Below are positions 22,946 to 59,194 of a DNA stretch of 64,000 nt, one piece after another (positions within the stretch are counted from its first letter, which is position 1; each line of letters starts with the position of its first letter). The stretch is taken from contig JACDFN010000001.1 of assembly GCA_013815775.1 (NCBI GenBank), positions 241,858 through 305,857 of the forward strand, in the 5' to 3' direction. Source of the stretch: Candidatus Saccharimonadota bacterium. GTDB lineage: Bacteria; Patescibacteriota; Saccharimonadia; Saccharimonadales; UBA10212. A program made the position numbers and the translations under genes. The notes under the pieces were generated by a model. It was given only the letters and a program-made list of their open reading frames with translations, ran no database searches and had not been told where the DNA came from.

Positions 22946-23029
22946 ATGGTGGGCGAGGTGGGATTCGAACCCACAACCCGTAAGGGCACGGATTTTAAGT
23001 CCGCTATGTAAACCATTCCATCACTCGCC
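22946..23029 (-). tRNA. tRNA-Leu(UAA), type II, CCA encoded
   Basis: Manual fold: 7-bp acceptor GGGCGAG/CTCGCCC, anticodon loop CUUAAAA, long variable arm, canonical T-arm GTGGG-TTCGAAT-CCCAC, ACCA 3' end. Confidence 0.85.
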
Positions 23030-23103
23030 CTGGAGGCGCGTACGAGCTTCGCACTCGTGTAAAAGGTTTTGCAGACCTTTGCCTAACTCCTCGGCCAACG
23101 CGC
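23030..23103 (-). tRNA. tRNA-Cys(GCA)-like with noncanonical T-loop (TGCGAAG); its CCA abuts the first nucleotide of tRNA-Leu
   Basis: Manual fold: acceptor GGCGCGT/ACGCGCC, discriminator U73 (a Cys identity element) and encoded CCA. Anticodon stem AAGGT/ACCTT with loop CUGCAAA (U33, GCA, A37). T-stem ACGAG/CTCGT but T-loop has G at position 55. Confidence 0.5.
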
Positions 23104-23222
23104 CTTAGTCTTACCCCTCACAATTATACAAGATTAGGTCGCTTTAGTAGTTGCAAGATTGCCAAATAAGCGTTATTGTTTAATCACTAGCAATTAACAT
23201 GGGTGGGTAACAGGAGGGAAGT

Positions 23223-32669: not shown

Positions 32670-32746
32670 TGGTGCGGGTGAGGGGACTCTAACCCCTGGC
32701 CTCTTCCTTGGCAAGGAAGCGCTCTAAACAACTGAGCTACACCCGC
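32670..32746 (-). tRNA. tRNA-Gly(GCC) with an unusual D-loop lacking GG and a T-loop TTAGAGT (possible U19:A56 instead of G19:C56)
   Basis: Manual fold: acceptor GCGGGTG/CACCCGC, anticodon stem CTTCC/GGAAG with loop UUGCCAA, T-stem AGGGG/CCCCT, ACCA end. Confidence 0.75.
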
Positions 32747-35695: not shown

Positions 35696-35771
35696 GGCTC
35701 TTTAGCTCAGTTGGTAGAGCAGAGGCTTGAAGAGCCTTGTGTCCCCAGTTCGAGTCTGGGAGGAGCCACCA
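35696..35771 (+). tRNA. tRNA-Phe(GAA)
   Basis: Manual fold: canonical D-arm GCTCAGTTGGTAGAGC, anticodon loop UUGAAGA, T-arm CCCAG-TTCGAGT-CTGGG, CCA encoded. Confidence 0.85.
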
Positions 35772-35916
35772 GTTTAAGTCGTGACTTCGGCTTTCGTACT
35801 TTACTATAAAGTAAAGTAGTTTCAGCCTTCGCACGCCTTTACGCTTAACAATTTTACAAAAACCTGCACTGCGTGATTTTGCAAAATTGAAAAAGATTAA
35901 GTATCAGCATAAAATC

Positions 35917-36001
35917 GGGTGAGTGGTGAAATTGGTATACACGCAGCCTTGAGGTGGCTGTGCCGCAAGGCGTGGAGGTTCAAGTCCTCTCTCACCCACC
36001 A
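35917..36001 (+). tRNA. tRNA-Leu(GAG), type II
   Basis: Acceptor GGGTGAG/CTCACCC, anticodon loop UUGAGGU, long variable arm, T-loop TTCAAGT, CCA. Confidence 0.85.
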
Positions 36002-36006
36002 GGAAA

Positions 36007-36083
36007 GGGCGCTTAGCTCAGTTGGCTAGAGCATCTCGTTTACACCGAGAGGGTCGGGGGTTCGAGTCCCTCAGCGCCCACCA
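36007..36083 (+). tRNA. tRNA-Val(UAC)
   Basis: Acceptor GGGCGCT/AGCGCCC, anticodon loop UUUACAC, T-loop TTCGAGT, CCA. Only 5 nt after tRNA-Leu. Confidence 0.85.
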
Positions 36084-38181: not shown

Positions 38182-38268
38182 GGGCGAATGGCGGAATTGG
38201 TAGACGCGCTACGTTCAGGACGTAGTGAGTGCAAACTCGTGGAGGTTCAAGTCCTCTTTCGCCCACCA
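38182..38268 (+). tRNA. tRNA-Leu(CAG), type II
   Basis: Acceptor GGGCGAA/TTCGCCC, D-arm GGCGGAATTGGTAGACGC, anticodon loop UUCAGGA, long variable arm, CCA. Confidence 0.85.
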
Positions 38269-41108: not shown

Positions 41109-42044
41109 ATGGTGAAGGCTGGAAAAAACAAGCGGCCTGGGAGTAAGATTTCCAAGACATCCCAGAAAAAAAAGGCTACTCAAAAAGCCGCTAGTAAACC
41201 GGTTAAGAGAGTAGTCCATGAGGTTACAAAGATTCCCGGCAGTTTTTATTTAACGAAGTATGTGCTGGGAATATTCAAGCAGAACTGGAGAGTCCTTGGC
41301 GGTATTACGCTTATTTACGTATTAGTTAATTCCCTTTTCGCCAACGGTATTTCTAACTTTACGTCAGCGCTAACTAGCATTGATGACAATACTGGGGCGG
41401 GCAGCGGCACAGTCTTTGGGGCGTTAAATGGGTTTGCCGGTCTGCTGGGGGGTAATGGTTCGCCAACCGGTTCGGCACTGCAGACGGTGCTTGTGATTAT
41501 TGAGAGCTTGGTAATTATTTGGGCGCTGAGGCACCTGGTTGCAGGAAAGCCTATCAGCATAAAGCAGGCTTATTACCACTCTATGGGCCCGCTAGTACCA
41601 TTCGTAATTGTTTTATCGGTTATTGTCATTCAGTTAATACCCCTGACGTTAGGCACCGCGGCCCTCGGGGTCGTCTTATCTAGTGTTTTTACCAGCGAGT
41701 CTTTAGTAATAATTCTTTTCAGCATTTTGTTTACTATTTTGGCCGCTTGGTCGCTTTATATGTTAACCAGCTCTGTACTGGCTCTTTATATTGTTACACT
41801 GCCAGACATGCACCCCAGGCAGGCTCTGCGCGCCGCCAAAAGTCTGGTTAAATCACGCCGCTGGCAACTGATGCGCAGGTTGGTTTACGTACCTCTCTTT
41901 ATTCTCGTGGTCATGGCGGCGGTTGTTTTGCCTCTGGCCATCTTGCTGCCCTGGGCTGCGGTAATTGCTTATTATCTAATTGGGGCGCTGTCTATTTTGT
42001 TTGTACATACCTTTTTGTACAGCCTTTACCGGAGCTTAATATGA
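41109..42044 (+). CDS. hypothetical polytopic membrane protein with a Lys-rich N-terminus, ATGA-coupled to ligA
   Basis: 311 aa, ~6 TM helices. Confidence 0.55.
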   Translation: MVKAGKNKRPGSKISKTSQKKKATQKAASKPVKRVVHEVTKIPGSFYLTKYVLGIFKQNWRVLGGITLIYVLVNSLFANGISNFTSALTSIDDNTGAGSGTVFGALNGFAGLLGGNGSPTGSALQTVLVIIESLVIIWALRHLVAGKPISIKQAYYHSMGPLVPFVIVLSVIVIQLIPLTLGTAALGVVLSSVFTSESLVIILFSILFTILAAWSLYMLTSSVLALYIVTLPDMHPRQALRAAKSLVKSRRWQLMRRLVYVPLFILVVMAAVVLPLAILLPWAAVIAYYLIGALSILFVHTFLYSLYRSLI

Positions 42045-44059
42045 CGAATCCTAAAGATAGAGCCGCCAAGCTAAGAGATTTGATTAACAACTACCGTTAT
42101 AACTATCACGTGCTCAACAAGTCCATTATGAGTGAAGCGGCAGCCGACAGCCTAAAGCATGAGCTGACTCAAATAGAAACTGAAAATCCAGAACTTATAA
42201 CTCCAGACTCGCCGACGCAGCGCGTAGCCGGCAGGCCCCTGCCAGGATTTTCTCAGATTAAACATTCAAGCCGGATGCTCAGTCTAAACGATGTGTTTGA
42301 TGAAGCAGAACTTGGAGCATGGGTTAAACGGATAACCAAACTTTTACCTTCCGATACCAAGCTTGAATATTTCATGGACCTAAAAATGGACGGCTTGGCA
42401 GCGGCTCTTATTTACGAAGATGGAATCTTAAAACAGGCCGTTACCCGTGGGGACGGTTTTGTAGGCGAGGATGTTACGGCTAACGTGCGAACGATAGAGT
42501 CTGTTCCGCTTCGGTTGCGAGAATCTAGCCACCATGCAGACTTTCTGGAAGGCCGAACCGAAGTACGCGGTGAAATTGTAATGTATAAAAAAGACTTCCA
42601 AGCTTTGAACAAACAACGACAAGTCGTGAGCTTACCAACTTTTGCAAACCCCCGAAACCTTGCCGCCGGAACTATTCGACAGCTTGATCCGCAGCTGGTA
42701 GCTGCCCGACCGCTTCAATTCCATGCCTATGACGTTATGCGCGAGCACCCCGAAGAAGTACCCACCAACAAGTTTGCCTACGAAGCCCTTAGAAGTCTTG
42801 GTTTGGTGGCTAATTCGGTGGCTACTTCTGCACATTCTGTAAAGGAAATTTTAAATTTTGCCAGAACCTGGGAGAAAAAGCGTCAAAAACTGCCTTTTAA
42901 CACAGACGGCCTTGTAGTGAAAATCAATGACAGGGTTATTTATGATCAACTAGGTGTGGTTGGTAAGGCGCCACGTGGTGCTGTGGCCTTTAAATATCCC
43001 GCAGAGCAGGCGACAACCAAAGTAAAAGATATATTTGTAAGCATTGGCCGCACCGGAGCTGCTACGCCGGTTGCCATGCTGGAACCTGTAGTTGTTGCTG
43101 GCAGTACGGTGCAAATGGCTACACTGCACAACGAGGGAGAAATAAGCCGTAAAGACATTAGGGTGGGTGACAGCGTTATAGTTCAAAAAGCCGGCGATGT
43201 AATACCTGAGGTGGTACGCCCTTTAAAGGAGCTTAGAGACGGCACAGAAAAGACTTTTGAAATGCCTAAAAATTGCCCAGAATGCGCCACGAAACTTATA
43301 AAAGCAAAAGAAACTGAGGCTATATGGCGTTGTCCAAATAATTCTTGTCCATCCAGGGCCTGGAAGACTATTCAACATTTTGCTTCTAAAGCAGCATTAG
43401 ACATAGAAGGACTTGGCGAGAAGAACGTAATTGCTTTGATTAAAGCTAACCTTGTTAAGGACCCAGCCGAACTCTATAACCTTAACAAGGATGATGTCCT
43501 TAAGCTTGAACGATTCGCCGAAATCTCTGCAGGAAAGCTAGTCAATGCAATCAAGGCCAAAAAACAACCCGACTTGGCAAGATTTATATACGGACTGGGT
43601 ATCCGCCACGTAGGTGTCCAAACCGCAATTGATTTAGCCGCTACCTTTAAATCGCTTAACAAGTTAAGTAATTCTACAATTGACGAGCTTAGCAGAGTGG
43701 AAGGAATAGGCGAGGTGGTTGCCGAGTCTGTGGTGGAATGGTTTTCGCGTCCTTCCAATCAAAAACTTCTAGCCAAATTTGAAAAAAATGGAGTAAAGCC
43801 GCAGAAATCCCACGAAGTGTCGGGTCCTCTGCTGGGCCTAAGTTTTGTGATAACAGGCAATATTGATTCCATGAGCCGTGAACAGGCTGCCGATAAAATA
43901 CGTGAGCTGGGCGGGACTTTTCAAAGCTCGGTAGGAAAGGGCACTAGCTACTTGGTAGTGGGTGAAAACGTTGGAAGCAACAAATTGGATAAAGCCCGTA
44001 AACTGGGCACGAAACTAATAGACGAAAAAGAACTCATGCGGATGCTTGACAAAGCATAA
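42041..44059 (+). CDS. ligA: NAD-dependent DNA ligase LigA
   Basis: Adenylation motif KMDGLAA, OB/Zn-finger cysteines, HhH and a C-terminal BRCT domain. Confidence 0.95.
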   Translation: MTNPKDRAAKLRDLINNYRYNYHVLNKSIMSEAAADSLKHELTQIETENPELITPDSPTQRVAGRPLPGFSQIKHSSRMLSLNDVFDEAELGAWVKRITKLLPSDTKLEYFMDLKMDGLAAALIYEDGILKQAVTRGDGFVGEDVTANVRTIESVPLRLRESSHHADFLEGRTEVRGEIVMYKKDFQALNKQRQVVSLPTFANPRNLAAGTIRQLDPQLVAARPLQFHAYDVMREHPEEVPTNKFAYEALRSLGLVANSVATSAHSVKEILNFARTWEKKRQKLPFNTDGLVVKINDRVIYDQLGVVGKAPRGAVAFKYPAEQATTKVKDIFVSIGRTGAATPVAMLEPVVVAGSTVQMATLHNEGEISRKDIRVGDSVIVQKAGDVIPEVVRPLKELRDGTEKTFEMPKNCPECATKLIKAKETEAIWRCPNNSCPSRAWKTIQHFASKAALDIEGLGEKNVIALIKANLVKDPAELYNLNKDDVLKLERFAEISAGKLVNAIKAKKQPDLARFIYGLGIRHVGVQTAIDLAATFKSLNKLSNSTIDELSRVEGIGEVVAESVVEWFSRPSNQKLLAKFEKNGVKPQKSHEVSGPLLGLSFVITGNIDSMSREQAADKIRELGGTFQSSVGKGTSYLVVGENVGSNKLDKARKLGTKLIDEKELMRMLDKA

Positions 44060-44081
44060 GCGGGTAACGTGTAATAGTGTT

Positions 44082-44235
44082 AGCTTCGCGCACCGGGCCC
44101 GCGCCTTCGGCGTGCGAATAATAAACAGATCTAAAACCAAAGATCAAAACAAACAGCCTAACCCGGGCCCCTCGGGTGGGCTGCGCGAAGTAAAGCAAAA
44201 CCATCCGCTCTTTTTCGCAAGGAGCGGATTTTTGC
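44082..44235 (+). ncRNA. candidate ~150-nt structured small RNA of unknown class with its own promoter and terminator
   Basis: Promoter TTGACA-18-TGTAAT (44046..44075). A 9-bp closing helix cttcgcgca/tgcgcgaag encloses two GC-rich hairpins (one with a UUCG loop) and an A/C-rich single-stranded stretch. Terminator atccgct-N13-agcggat plus TTTTT (44203..44234). Confidence 0.35.
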
Positions 44236-44375
44236 ACTAATTTGACAATTTTGTAAGCCAAGTAGACACTTGCTTGCAAAATTGAGAGGAAGGTCCGACT
44301 ATAAAGTGAGCTAAGATTTTAGAATCACCAGTGATGTAAGAGCTTAGGGAACAAAAAAAGTCGAGACCTGACGAA

Positions 44376-44452
44376 GGGGCATTAGCTCAGATGGCTAGAG
44401 CGCTACATTCGCATTGTAGAGGTCGGCGGTTCGACTCCGCCATGCTCCACCA
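44376..44452 (+). tRNA. tRNA-Ala(CGC) with G3:U70
   Basis: Acceptor GGGGCAT/ATGCTCC, anticodon loop UUCGCAU, T-arm GGCGG-TTCGACT-CCGCC, CCA. Confidence 0.85.
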
Positions 44453-44467
44453 AGCAGCGATAATTCG

Positions 44468-44992
44468 CTATGCAGCTCCTGGTTCAGGGCTTTTGTTAAC
44501 ATTCTTGAGGTAGTAATCAGTCAAGGTCTTCTCGTTGTACGAGTCAAGCTTTAATATTCTATTCCAAGACCTTATAATAATTAATCTATCGTTTTTACTT
44601 CCCGGCATTACAATTGCCTTACTGGGAGTAAATTTTGGGTTTGAATATGGCTTGCTAAATATCTTTTCCAGCTTTTCAATCGTAGCTTTGGGCATGTCCG
44701 GTCTATAGGAAATAACCAGTCCGCCATGCTCCATGTTGTGAACTACTATTTCGTTGGGTATTTCTTGTTTGTAGGCTGCCCAGGGAGCGGGTTGTTCGGC
44801 GTGGGTACCTGAAGTCGGGAACACTGTGCTGTAATTGAAAGTTTGACCTTGTGCAAGGTGCTGGCGACCTTTATCTGGTTGCTTTTGGCCTTCCGGCACT
44901 TTAGAGCTGGAGCTGTCTTTATTAAGCACGGCAAAGCCAGTGAAGCTCAGTATCAAAACGAACATAATGGCGTAAAAAATTTTATTACTCAT
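44468..44992 (-). CDS. DUF3105-like secreted/membrane-anchored protein
   Basis: N-terminal TM and the VHNMEHGGLVISY motif typical of DUF3105. Confidence 0.55.
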   Translation of the reverse strand: MSNKIFYAIMFVLILSFTGFAVLNKDSSSSKVPEGQKQPDKGRQHLAQGQTFNYSTVFPTSGTHAEQPAPWAAYKQEIPNEIVVHNMEHGGLVISYRPDMPKATIEKLEKIFSKPYSNPKFTPSKAIVMPGSKNDRLIIIRSWNRILKLDSYNEKTLTDYYLKNVNKSPEPGAA

Positions 44993-45005
44993 TCTTAATC
45001 TCCCT

Positions 45006-45398
45006 CTACTGCATTATATGCACATCGTGAGATTTAGGCACATCTTTATATCCAAAGTCGCCTTGCCAAGTTTGCATCATATCTATTTCCATTGACTGGG
45101 CAGACATAATTTCCTGACCGAGCTTTTTTAATTCATCGTGCTTAGCATTGGTTTGAGTTAATTTAGCCATTTCAATTGCGCCTTCGTGGTGAGCAATCAT
45201 TTCTTTCAAAAATGCCTTATCAAAGTTATCTCCTTTTAGAGCCTTCAATTCGTTTAAAACTTCTTCATTGTGCTGAGAAGTCGAAGGACTTTTCGAGTTT
45301 CTCTCAGACTGGTCATCGCCTAGGTAATAAGCTGATGAAACAACCAGACCTCCTAAGATAAACCCGATAACTCCACCTAGTAATGCTTTTGGTACCAT
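45006..45398 (-). CDS. DUF305-family metal-binding protein
   Basis: N-terminal TM and MIAHHEGAIEMA (DUF305 HH..A..MA signature). Confidence 0.7.
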   Translation of the reverse strand: MVPKALLGGVIGFILGGLVVSSAYYLGDDQSERNSKSPSTSQHNEEVLNELKALKGDNFDKAFLKEMIAHHEGAIEMAKLTQTNAKHDELKKLGQEIMSAQSMEIDMMQTWQGDFGYKDVPKSHDVHIMQ

Positions 45399-45419
45399 AA
45401 AAATATTCTCCTTTAACTT

Positions 45420-45695
45420 TTATAACATTCTACTAATTGCCCCAACCAATTCATCAGCCTTGTCTATTCCATCTTTCGACTGGTTTTGATTACTAGTGAG
45501 ACAGTGCCGGGCATGGCCGCGCAGAAGCTCTAAGGCAACCTTATCTAAAGCGGCCTGAGCGGCGCTAATTTGGGTAAGAACGTCAATACAATATTTATCG
45601 TCTTGAACCATTTTAGAGATGCCTCGTACCTGGCCTTCAACTCTGTTTAGCCGCTTTTGCAGAGGGTCTTTTGTATCATAGTATCCGTACTTCAT
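45420..45695 (-). CDS. csoR: CsoR/RcnR-family metal-sensing transcriptional repressor
   Basis: 91 aa; RLNRVEGQVRGI, YCIDVLTQISA and H..HC residues consistent with the Cu(I)-sensing C-H-C triad. Confidence 0.75.
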   Translation of the reverse strand: MKYGYYDTKDPLQKRLNRVEGQVRGISKMVQDDKYCIDVLTQISAAQAALDKVALELLRGHARHCLTSNQNQSKDGIDKADELVGAISRML

Positions 45696-45705
45696 AGTTT
45701 CTCCA

Positions 45706-46155
45706 TTAATGATTATGATGGTGTTGGTGCGCTAGGGCGTGGCCCTTGCCTCGCTTAATAAGGTAGTTATTAACCGGTAGTGCAGCAAAGAAGGCAGCAG
45801 TCAACGCTAAAGCCAGCGCCAACCAGAACACAGGGTTAACCAACCCGGCATTCATAGCCCCGGGGACGGCTAGCATCACCGAATTGTCTACGATTTCCAT
45901 GGTCGCAATGGAGAGAGTGTCAGCTGCAAAGGCAATCGACAAGGCCGCACCCAAGGTCAGACCCCCTTTGAGCAGAGGCAGTAAAGATAGAGTGTAACCA
46001 AACAAGAAAGCTAGAGTAACCGCTAAGACAATGGTAACGATATTACTTAGACCGAGCGCAGTTCCGATTAAAAGCCCGAGTACCTCTCCAATCGCACAGC
46101 CTGTCAAGCAGTGAAGGGTGGCGCTAACGGCAATACTGTTTTTAAGCATCTTCAT
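45706..46155 (-). CDS. DUF4396-family membrane protein with a His-rich C-tail (start at MKMLKNS)
   Basis: HCLTGCAIGEVLG motif and C-terminal HALAHQHHHNH. The start is placed downstream of the track start because the operator palindrome abuts it. Confidence 0.65.
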   Translation of the reverse strand: MKMLKNSIAVSATLHCLTGCAIGEVLGLLIGTALGLSNIVTIVLAVTLAFLFGYTLSLLPLLKGGLTLGAALSIAFAADTLSIATMEIVDNSVMLAVPGAMNAGLVNPVFWLALALALTAAFFAALPVNNYLIKRGKGHALAHQHHHNH

Positions 46156-46172
46156 ATACCCCCCTAGGGTAT
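46156..46172 (-). promoter_or_regulatory. candidate CsoR operator: ATACCC-N5-GGGTAT GC-tract inverted repeat abutting the first gene of the csoR operon
   Basis: atacccccctagggtat, read directly from the sequence. Confidence 0.45.
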
Positions 46173-46294
46173 TATGGTCAACAGTGGTTGTCAAGTAAAG
46201 CTAGATTTCTAAGGTGTTACTTAGTATAATTATTTTGTTTTAAGGCATTGGCGCTGCTGGCTAGCGCTTCTTTTAATAATCTAGTTCACGATAC

Positions 46295-46371
<77 letters not shown>

Positions 46372-59120: not shown

Positions 59121-59194
59121 TGGGACGTGGCCAAGCGGTAAGGCACTGGGTTCTGGTCCCAGGATCGTAGGTTCGAATCCTACCGTCCCAGCCA
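59121..59194 (+). tRNA. tRNA-Gln(CUG) with U1:A72
   Basis: Acceptor TGGGACG/CGTCCCA, anticodon loop UUCUGGU, T-arm GTAGG-TTCGAAT-CCTAC, GCCA end. Confidence 0.85.

Follow-up and report, generated by a model that had tools for sequence, protein, structure and literature searches.

The closest described counterparts of the element reported here are the raiA motif RNA and the Breaker-Weinberg candidate RNAs, which are stand-alone transcripts with their own promoter and terminator, consist of an invariant core with pseudoknot potential and variable peripheral hairpins, are restricted to particular lineages, and have no assigned function. The element shares all of these features, its promoter and terminator here being predicted ones. 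It differs from such orphan candidate motifs in having no sequence or structure match in Rfam 15 and in its host, a member of the CPR Saccharibacteria; in size it falls far below OLE, GOLLD, and ROOL. The genomes of Saccharibacteria and other CPR/Patescibacteria measure ∼1 Mb and encode few regulators and, to our knowledge, almost no characterized non-coding RNAs; a literature search found nothing relevant on the non-coding RNAs of Saccharibacteria or TM7x. The element was found in a 64,000-nucleotide stretch of a Candidatus Saccharimonadota genome (the window, whose first letter is position 1). The protein encoded by its ligA is identical to one listed by NCBI under Candidatus Saccharibacteria bacterium. 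An earlier note on this DNA had placed an orphan structured RNA of no described class, running from promoter to terminator, between ligA and a tRNA-Ala gene, a proposal that the analysis supports at the level of sequence, and every element listed in the note sits where the note had placed it. The explanation that we favor, with a confidence slightly above even, is that the element encodes, as an independent predicted gene, a structured non-coding RNA of ∼150 nt and founds a family outside Rfam 15 in one clade of the Saccharimonadales (Candidatus Saccharibacteria).

The predicted promoter begins inside the neighboring gene. The ligA open reading frame spans positions 42041 to 44059, and its final codons hold a −35 box, TTGACA (44046-44051, + strand), that was identified in the window sequence and in 22 homologs, where it occupies the same position in 22/22 (as TTGACT once). 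The −10 box, TGTAAT (44070-44075, + strand), lies within the conserved block AAGCGTGTAAT at a spacing of 18 nt in the window and 17 nt in most homologs. The near-consensus promoter read here previously, TTGACA-18-TGTAAT with its −35 box in the 3' end of ligA, is confirmed, and TTGACA-17/18-TGTAAT is present in 22/22 distinct homologs, 8 to 10 nt before the closing helix P1. An automated promoter scan missed it, since the scan accepts only −10 hexamers whose second base is A. The upstream gene varies among loci (ligA, Ham1-like, or GIY-YIG); the promoter is nevertheless kept with the RNA. On the 3' side, an intrinsic terminator (44203-44233, + strand; hairpin 44203-44229) consists of the stem AUCCGCUCUUU/AAGGAGCGGAU followed by U5. 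The terminator and its U5 tract stand as first described, but the stem is 8 to 11 bp rather than 7 bp. A terminator hairpin with a U-tract was found in 21/21 homologs with enough flanking sequence, L026 being left out of the count (21/22 scored) since its flank is cut by the end of the locus. The terminator stems are unrelated in sequence between homologs and share no sequence with P1 or with the conserved strand b' described below. Based on the promoter and terminator geometry, the predicted primary transcript of ∼152 nt (44082-44233, + strand) would start 7 to 8 nt past the −10 box and end at the terminator U-tract. Taken together, these predicted signals strongly support an independent sRNA gene with a sigma-70 promoter and an intrinsic terminator, and the RNA is probably highly expressed. 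The absence of an open reading frame claimed for this region also held: the core is 75 to 136 nt long among homologs and does not vary in multiples of three, so there is no conserved open reading frame, and a small ORF was rejected because this variation breaks the reading frame.

The transcript would contain a GC-clamped, structured core of 107 nt (44084-44190, + strand). The minimum free energy of the + strand is −66.4 kcal/mol, as compared to −43.8 ± 3.6 kcal/mol for 200 shuffled sequences (z = −6.2), and 0/200 shuffles were as good; the − strand gave z = −2.9. The core is closed by P1, the 9-bp long-range helix recognized in the earlier note, in which the 5' strand CTTCGCGCA (= CUUCGCGCA; 44084-44092, + strand) pairs with the 3' strand TGCGCGAAG (= UGCGCGAAG; 44182-44190, + strand). 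A covariance model, R1, matches the same interval, 44084-44190, with 83.7 bits. Across the 22 sequences 99.5% of P1 cells are paired, and three P1 pairs show changes on both sides. The compensatory changes, GCGUG/CACGC in L005 and a terminal U-A pair in L023, each come from a single sequence.

The 22 distinct homologs are all from Saccharibacteria and all carry the same promoter and core. Thirteen of the 22 were retrieved with a search pattern in which most of P1 and GGGUGGGC was specified, so invariance at these positions is partly by construction, and nine were found by ligA synteny; the depth of covariation is modest, and the way in which the sequences were retrieved introduces some bias into the alignment. 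A pattern scan of GTDB species returned 22 matches, 15 of them in Saccharibacteria or Saccharimonadales MAGs. The seven non-CPR matches were set aside as chance matches, scoring at most 21 bits or nothing with the model and having no promoter and terminator. A ligA scan of metagenomes yielded eight loci; in one of them (L010) the DNA downstream was usable and contained the RNA. In three Saccharimonadales loci of greater distance, the 3 kb downstream of ligA hold no copy, and thus the RNA is not universal there but restricted to a clade. The near-complete contigs Ga0671523_0000001 and ERZ27264405 k141_1556994 have no copy behind ligA. The comparative checks that the earlier note had called for therefore came out in its favor: the promoter is conserved in all 22 sequences with the terminator in every one that could be scored, and covarying changes are present in P1 and in a variable hairpin, with wobble pairs that work on the + strand only.

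This variable hairpin, Pv (GCGCC-UUC-GGCGU, UUCG-capped; 44101-44113, + strand), is the UUCG-looped hairpin predicted previously. Homologs of subtype A have ten different Pv stems, all of them complementary, and five of the six aligned pairs occur as at least two standard pair types. Both the sequence and the loop of Pv vary, and in L005 and L023 the hairpin is all but missing; Pv is a variable decoration. As the sole apical hairpin it was also considered as a domain IV of SRP RNA (4.5S/ffs), which has conserved loops and a GNRA tetraloop, and was rejected for the same variability, and neither RF00169 nor RF01854 gave a match.

These data also bear on whether the conservation acts on DNA rather than on RNA, as it would if the element were a protein-binding site, a cluster of restriction sites, or the scar of a mobile element beside a tRNA gene. 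GGGCCC, CCCGGG, and CGCG are all palindromic in DNA, and tRNA genes are common integration sites. However, the G·U and U·G pairs work on the + strand only, the fold z-scores are strand-asymmetric, the variable stems carry compensatory changes, and the promoter and terminator flank the element everywhere in the right orientation. The element is also single-copy. R1 found one copy in the 64-kb window and one per related locus, with no dispersed copies of the REP/MITE type in either; a scan of viral contigs with GGGTGGGCYRCGCGAA gave 46 loci, 0 of which match the covariance model, and blastn against phage and plasmid collections gave no match. A DNA-level explanation is thus highly improbable and already largely refuted.

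The most conserved part of the predicted RNA lies directly inside P1. Segment a, GGGCCC (44095-44100, + strand), follows P1 after 2 nt (CC) and is the proposed 5' strand of a pseudoknot. The second GC hairpin, confirmed at 44158-44180, has on the best reading a 7-bp stem, YYYRCCC/GGGUGGG, formed by segment b (CUAACCC, 44158-44164, + strand; consensus YYYRCCC) and the invariant segment b' (GGGUGGG, 44174-44180, + strand). C44181 is the sole nucleotide between b' and the 3' strand of P1. The b/b' pairing accounts for 90.8% of cells, whereas slid controls reach 30 to 51%, and the outer four positions are paired in 70/84 cells versus 37 ± 4.5 for random interior 4-mers, with 15 sequence variants. 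The helix is rich in U·G and G·U pairs, which on the other strand would be C·A mismatches. GGGUGGG is also invariant in the nine homologs recovered by ligA synteny, a search that did not depend on it.

The loop of this hairpin, 7 to 10 nt long, consists of GGGCCC plus 1 to 3 nt and is complementary to the GGGCCY that follows P1. In the window the hexamer is segment a' (44165-44170, + strand), the proposed 3' strand of the pseudoknot. GGGCCC has only 8 occurrences in the 64-kb window, yet two of them fall within 70 nt at this element. The a and a' segments are complementary in 20/21 sequences, the support consisting entirely of a matched insertion in L032 (GGAGCCC/GGGCUCC) and of C-to-U changes; the variants of segment a, GGGCCU and GGGCUC, are all of the latter kind and keep G·U pairs. 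L010 is without the GGGCCC pair altogether. The predicted a/a' duplex is worth −12 to −16 kcal/mol in every sequence. Since the core nucleotides are invariant, the case for the pseudoknot rests on one matched insertion and one-sided changes. RNAalifold favors a mutually exclusive register, a perfect three-way junction (CCGGG/CCCGG and GCCC/GGGC), which is the minimum free energy register in many type A sequences but costs 4 to 15 kcal/mol more in type B sequences. Only the register that combines the hairpin with the pseudoknot is energetically acceptable in both subtypes. We disfavor the three-way junction because it leaves the X4-X7 pairing unexplained and because of its worse energy in type B. 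Pairing of the GGGCCC loop with GGGCCY to form a compact pseudoknot is supported but not settled. The second GC hairpin is the invariant center of the RNA, and it probably forms a pseudoknot with the segment after P1.

The two proposed pseudoknot strands are separated by 30 to 95 nt, a replaceable module that consists of one or two stable-tetraloop hairpins and A-rich linkers. In the window Pv is followed by GCGAA and an A-rich linker (44114-44157, + strand; 61% A). The composition of the A/C-rich stretch was as reported (44117-44157; 61% A, 20% C), but a 5-bp hairpin predicted within it (44128-44132 with 44141-44145; 44128-44145 overall) means that it would not be fully unpaired. All homologs have A-rich runs of the AAAAYAAA type, which vary in sequence and length. 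Such a long and probably single-stranded region, together with a stand-alone architecture ending in a terminator hairpin and U-tail, would suit a regulatory sRNA that pairs with distant mRNAs through the exposed GGGCCC loop, GGGUGGG, or the A-rich linker, perhaps with the help of an A-tract-binding chaperone; the AAUAAUAAA run resembles the A-rich sites of such chaperones. Arguing against this, the invariant nucleotides lie nearly all within predicted helices, with no conserved unpaired seed evident, and the A-rich region, being variable in both respects, would make a poor conserved seed, its length and sequence changing between homologs. In addition, GCCCACCC, the perfect complement of GGGUGGGC, is absent from the 64-kb window. 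We consider a base-pairing sRNA rather unlikely.

The genomic surroundings raise a further explanation. At nearly every locus with enough flanking sequence a tRNA-Ala gene lies ∼40 to 375 nt from the 3' end of the RNA, mostly with the anticodon CGC (GGC in L023, L027, and L041), and at L096 both tRNA-Ala(CGC) and the RNA are absent from the position. This linkage could indicate a cis-acting or co-transcribed element for the tRNA, such as a leader, a processing signal, or a control of terminator read-through, with the read-through being sense in tandem loci and antisense in convergent ones. We regard both the general idea and this read-through version as distinctly unlikely. The tRNA-Ala gene is in tandem with the RNA in some loci and convergent in others, the terminator always intervenes, and no alternative pairing connects P1 with the terminator stems. 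Where the two genes are in tandem, an extended −10 motif (TGnTAnAAT) comes after the U-tract, so that the tRNA probably has its own promoter. The linkage may be mere conserved gene order. Direct pairing of GGGUGGG with the 3' end of tRNA-Ala was considered and dropped: it would give only 6 bp, would require the acceptor stem to melt, and UGGG mismatches A73. A cis-acting riboswitch was likewise rejected, as there is no competing expression platform, the terminator stems differ, and no same-strand ORF lies between the RNA and the downstream tRNA.

Comparison with known RNA families was carried out with the 4227 models of Rfam 15. At gathering thresholds only tRNAs were detected in the whole window and in 20 homologous loci, and at E ≤ 10 the RNA regions of the window, L017, and L034 gave no explanatory family. 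The matches seen at E ≤ 10 (STnc240 on the terminator, terC at 16.8 bits, and others) are non-recurring and were attributed to chance. ARAGORN and Rfam detected tRNAs alone, with no tmRNA. The judgment made by eye in the earlier note, that the element is not SRP RNA, tmRNA, or 6S RNA, agrees with the absence of any model match and of a 6S architecture, and its Rfam check returned no family for the window or the homologs at either threshold. Two chance resemblances were also discarded, namely mimicry of an anti-Shine-Dalgarno sequence, which has a central U·U mismatch, and similarity to P4 of RNase P, which is a 9-mer in L032 alone.

A lineage-specific functional analog of a housekeeping RNA could lie beyond the reach of the Rfam models in CPR, in which case a 6S-like RNA that binds RNA polymerase would be the most plausible candidate. 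The element resembles 6S RNA (RF00013 and lineage-specific families) as a highly structured, putative free RNA with paired ends, a strong, invariant promoter, and a suitable size of ∼150 nt, and the lack of a 6S match in any region scanned counts for this possibility. Against it, neither RF00013 nor a related model matches at the gathering score or at E ≤ 10, and in place of the long, irregular, centrally bubbled hairpin of 6S RNA the folds show a closing helix of just 9 bp over a branched or pseudoknotted interior. The helix sequences are strongly conserved, unlike those of 6S RNA, and the RNA is not universal among relatives, the syntenic site being empty in three related genomes. A 6S-like analog is very unlikely.

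By analogy, a small catalytic or ligand-sensing free transcript, such as a self-cleaving ribozyme or an orphan aptamer, can be imagined as well. Aptamers and small ribozymes typically combine an invariant core with a replaceable periphery, and the GC-rich, predicted pseudoknotted core, the A-rich strands, and the replaceable peripheral domain conform to this pattern. However, no ribozyme or riboswitch family matches even at E ≤ 10 (hammerhead, twister, pistol, hatchet, and HDV-like models included), no regulated downstream ORF or expression platform accompanies the RNA, and no cleavage-site motif was recognized. An HDV-like fold was dropped because its strand order is wrong. We therefore hold a ribozyme or aptamer to be very improbable also.

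Returning to an independent structured RNA as the favored explanation, the proposed sequence of events is as follows. The near-consensus sigma-70 promoter would fire, with transcription beginning at about the first P1 base pair and stopping at the intrinsic terminator. The RNA would then close on itself through the 9-bp P1, placing the GC-rich core directly inside P1, with the 7-bp hairpin tied to the 3' strand of P1 by a single C, and the GGGCCC of the hairpin loop would pair with GGGCCY to give a compact pseudoknot. The A-rich strands may pack into the GC helices through A-minor contacts or may provide a single-stranded platform. Our best guess is that the RNA would act in trans, its invariant, pseudoknotted core binding a conserved partner, for which a protein appears likelier than a small ligand.

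A bolder extension, which we consider doubtful, is that this is a CPR-specific class of RNA with a new biochemical role, in which the P1-clamped invariant pseudoknot serves as a dedicated binding or catalytic module. The pseudoknot would then be GGGCCY / YYYRCCC-GGGCCC-GGGUGGG, and the module would be the core of a new RNP, a trans-acting orphan aptamer, or a small ribozyme of a new kind. The role would possibly be tied to tRNA-Ala biology, because the linkage to tRNA-Ala persists in both orientations. The persistence of the RNA through changes in the surrounding gene order suggests a role that these reduced cells need. The ∼107-nt core is a compact target for probing, pull-downs, and metatranscriptome mapping, and the core could seed a new covariance model with which to annotate CPR genomes.

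Three further systems offer points of comparison. The ZTP riboswitch is, like this RNA, closed by a P1 and has a variable insertion between two conserved parts, a 5' segment and a 3' hairpin, whose GC-rich pseudoknot corresponds to the one proposed here, but the present element does not precede an ORF, has no expression platform overlapping the aptamer, conserves other nucleotides, and lacks an Rfam match. The T-box antiterminator carries the sequence AGGGUGGNACCGCG, to which the invariant GGGUGGGCUGCGCG is superficially similar, and the RNA adjoins a tRNA gene. In contrast to a T-box, the element has neither Stem I nor a specifier and is not followed by an aminoacyl-tRNA synthetase or amino-acid gene; its GGGUGGG pairs with an upstream strand, and UGGG mismatches the A73 discriminator of tRNA-Ala. 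RF00230 gave no match at E ≤ 10, and what lies downstream is a tRNA gene, either in tandem or convergent. Finally, a 6-nt GC palindrome in a hairpin loop of 7 to 10 nt recalls the GCGCGC loop of the HIV-1 DIS. As a palindrome, the GGGCCC loop could in principle pair either intramolecularly or with another copy of the RNA. Unlike the HIV-1 DIS, whose biological context is unrelated, the RNA conserves a second, intramolecular copy of the palindrome 2 nt from P1, and therefore a pseudoknot is favored.

The structured RNA predicted on the + strand between ligA and tRNA-Ala is bounded by the signals of a gene of its own, as an earlier note had proposed. The claimed promoter is borne out (TTGACA, 44046-44051; TGTAAT, 44070-44075; 18-nt spacer), and its -35 box does lie within the 3' end of ligA, a 672-aa ORF (42041-44059) with a complete set of NAD-dependent DNA ligase domains. 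The terminator is likewise present as a stem at 44203-44229 followed by U5. Based on these gene signals, the transcript is predicted to span ∼152 nt (44082-44233). The promoter scan missed this promoter because it accepts only A as the second base of the -10 hexamer; despite that, the promoter is kept across homologues and is therefore considered real. TTGACA occurs in 22 of 22 RNA sequences (once as TTGACT) and is followed by TGTAAT after 17 or 18 nt, a spacer that always holds TAAGC-n-TAAGCG, and the closing helix P1 starts 8-10 nt after TGTAAT. In all 21 sequences whose flank is long enough, the RNA finishes with a hairpin and U-tract, and the stem sequence is lineage-specific. A conserved promoter together with a terminator of differing stems marks an independent transcription unit. 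The promoter also accompanies the RNA when the upstream gene changes, with a Ham1-like gene intervening in loci L003 and L020 and a small GIY-YIG ORF in L007. Whichever gene it is, the upstream ORF reads into the sRNA promoter (window 44044-44059; L003 5048-5070): TTGACA codes L-D(K), the conserved spacer block ATAAGC supplies the stop as its TAA, and the C-termini are ...L-D-K-A-stop for ligA and ...L-D-K-G-stop for the Ham1-like gene. The 85-aa GIY-YIG domain ORF, found between ligA and the promoter in L007 (4548-4805) and L028, may be a mobile homing-endonuclease-like gene.

An NCBI protein named Candidatus Saccharibacteria bacterium matches the window ligase at 100% identity (contig JAITZQ012821480, GCA_020064125.1). 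Homologues were traced via contigs of ligA relatives with 64-80% identity, and the element lies downstream in L002, L003, L005, L007, L010, L017, L020, L023, and L093. In addition, 185,579 GTDB species genomes were scanned with a pattern spanning the invariant 3' motif plus a portion of P1. Of the 22 places matched, 15 are in Saccharibacteria or Saccharimonadales MAGs; the other seven were rejected, being in GC-rich genomes, lacking promoter and terminator, and scoring ≤21 bits or not at all with the covariance model, by which true members reach 54-94 bits. Altogether, 22 distinct RNA sequences were found, which answers the earlier note's question of conservation. No copy was present within 3 kb of ligA in L094-L096, which are more distant Saccharimonadales (two from ∼1 Mb contigs), and L096 also lacks tRNA-Ala(CGC) near ligA; the RNA is thus clade-restricted or relocated in those genomes. 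The covariance model finds a single copy in the 64 kb and one per related locus, ruling out a repeat element. Phage and plasmid collections gave no match to the RNA, nor was it found in 46 viral contigs with the same 16-mer.

The long-range helix P1 was confirmed, with CTTCGCGCA (44084-44092) pairing with TGCGCGAAG (44182-44190) and enclosing, as first described, a UUCG-capped hairpin, an A/C-rich stretch (61% A, 20% C), and a GC hairpin. The + strand folds at -66.4 kcal/mol versus -43.8 ± 3.6 for shuffles (z = -6.2; 0 of 200 as good), and the reverse complement gives z = -2.9. Pairing in P1 reaches 99.5% of cells, versus 30-51% in slid controls. L005 carries a double compensatory change in this helix (GCGUG/CACGC), L023 a terminal U-A pair, and L003 a U.G pair. 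Within P1, a variable module defines type A (the window and 12 others) and type B (eight sequences). In type A, the hairpin Pv occurs as ten different stems that all stay complementary, with UUCG-, CUCG-, or GCAA-type loops, and is followed by GCGAA and an A-rich linker. The type B module consists of a short hairpin AAAAUAAACACCCA, a conserved hairpin UCUAAGG...YUUGGA, and CAAAAACAAAAGCUU. The aberrant L010 (4203-4338; 53.6 bits) retains the promoter, P1, and GGGUGGGC, and both GGGCCC segments are replaced by a 19-bp hairpin (CCCCGCACUUAAAC.../...GUUUAAGUGCGGGG). Separately, long-form type A members (L007, L026, L031, L034, L040, L042) carry internal GCGAAG and UUCGC copies of the P1 strands, so that four segments could pair 1-4 and 2-3 or 1-2 and 3-4, an attenuator-like bistability. 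In the window, GCGAA is the only such copy, used in its core-only MFE, and in type B, CACCC duplicates the b strand; such duplicates are not universal in the family. Comparison of the homologues shows that the promoter, terminator, predicted closing helix, and predicted 3' hairpin are conserved and that the variable hairpin covaries.

The core reads, inside P1, CC, GGGCYY (a), the variable module of 30-95 nt, YYYRCCC (b), GGGCCC (a'), 1-3 nt, GGGUGGG (b'), and C. The b/b' hairpin is 90.8% paired, and all its changes are one-sided because the G-strand is invariant. Fifteen different sequences occur at the outer four b positions, and 70 of 84 cells there are paired with UGGG, against 37 ± 4.5 (maximum 53 in 5000 draws) for 4-mers drawn at random from these A-rich interiors. 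Many of these outer pairs are U.G or G.U, which is sensible only for a + strand RNA, and palindromes acting at the DNA level have hardly any probability. The 3' hairpin loop, GGGCCC(+n) of 7-10 nt, is the exact complement of segment a. Supporting a/a' pairing, the 5' variants GGGCCU and GGGCUC retain G.U pairs, L032 has a matched insertion (GGAGCCC with GGGCUCC), and GGGCCC occurs only eight times in the 64 kb, two of them within 70 nt here. RNAalifold proposes a rival register, a perfect three-way junction (CCGGG/CCCGG and GCCC/GGGC), which many type A sequences have as their MFE and which is 4-15 kcal/mol worse in type B. Because the hairpin register with an a/a' duplex (-12 to -16 kcal/mol) is acceptable in every sequence, we favor a modeled a/a' pseudoknot, for which proof by covariation is blocked by the invariance of the core nucleotides. 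The two registers could be alternative conformers. Since the core helices are invariant, the periphery is replaceable, and A-rich strands flank the GC helices, we infer that the three-dimensional core would be recognized by some partner. That the RNA is instead a base-pairing regulator seems unlikely, though worth keeping in mind.

The 3' end of the RNA faces a tRNA-Ala gene in 20 of 22 sequences, and by eye in L023; L026 ends at the locus edge. This gene, tRNA-Ala(CGC) at 44376-44452 in the window, follows the RNA in tandem at a distance of 40-375 nt in 14 loci, the window among them, and is convergent in seven. Compared with the window, the tRNA-Ala gene, or a tRNA-Ala CGC/GGC pair, is inverted relative to the sRNA in L010, L017, L020, L023, L027, L032, L034, and L041. 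The anticodon is mostly CGC (GGC in L023, L027, L041). Convergent loci have a bidirectional A-tract/U-tract terminator common to both genes (AAAAAUAUCCG...CGGAUAUUUUU), and tandem loci have an extended -10 motif (TGnTAnAAT) after the terminator U-tract, suggesting that the tRNA is probably under its own promoter. A cis element linked to tRNA-Ala is, in our estimate, improbable. The local inversions left sRNA and tRNA-Ala adjacent. In L003, L005, L031, L033, L037, L039, L040, and L044, the extended -10 (TGCTAAAAT, TGTTAAAAT, TGCTATAAT, TGATAGAAT, and similar) lies in the 10-40 nt that follow the sRNA terminator, upstream of tRNA-Ala, and starts in or just past the U-tract; terminator tail and tRNA promoter therefore overlap.

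A second conserved structured element occupies 44245-44372 (+), between the sRNA terminator and tRNA-Ala(CGC), and recurs in L002 (4700-4830) and L007/L028; only loci whose spacer is long (∼180 nt) have it. It consists of a 12-bp hairpin CAAUUUUGUAAG/CUUGCAAAAUUG, then AGAGGAGGAAC...GUUCCGAYGA closing a further, compensatory hairpin (GGUCCGAC/GUCGAGACC in the window), and has an SD-like AGGAGG with no start codon after it; the element may represent either a tRNA leader or another small RNA. Beside two tRNA-Ala genes, an opposite-strand cluster of metal-related appearance (44468-46194, -) encodes DUF3105, DUF305/DUF4142, a CsoR-type metal-sensing repressor (PF02583), and DUF4396, the last usually next after tRNA-Ala in relatives. 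Nine more tRNA genes lie in the window (22947-23104, 32670-32746, 35696-36083, 38182-38268, 46295-46371, 59121-59194), some of them forming a Phe/Leu/Val cluster, and each has an encoded CCA end.

At gathering score, Rfam 15 gave no family in the window or 20 homologous loci, and scans of three representatives at E ≤ 10, covering 6S, both SRP models, tmRNA, RNase P, T-box, all riboswitches, and all small ribozymes, gave only unrelated, non-recurring chance matches. No known Rfam family accounts for the RNA, and a ribozyme or free aptamer is given a very low probability. ARAGORN found no tmRNA, and SRP, RNase P, tmRNA, and 6S RNA are all absent from the 64-kb window. Core lengths range over 75-136 nt and break the reading frame, so the RNA is not coding, in agreement with the earlier claim that it has no ORF with an RBS. 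To our knowledge, essentially no ncRNA biology is known for the host phylum, and a full-text literature search returned nothing on ncRNAs in Saccharibacteria. We consider it somewhat better than an even chance that this is an independent structured RNA gene of a new family with its core as a putative binding site, the weight being mostly on the first half. This is a real and clean family, open to testing, with a narrow distribution.

The note's judgment that the RNA is neither SRP nor 6S holds for its architecture as well. 6S is a long hairpin with a central bubble, which this RNA does not match, and a 6S-like analogue is quite improbable; SRP is a poor fit because the only apical hairpin is variable. 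The family is new, though its kind, the lineage-specific structured sRNA, is familiar.
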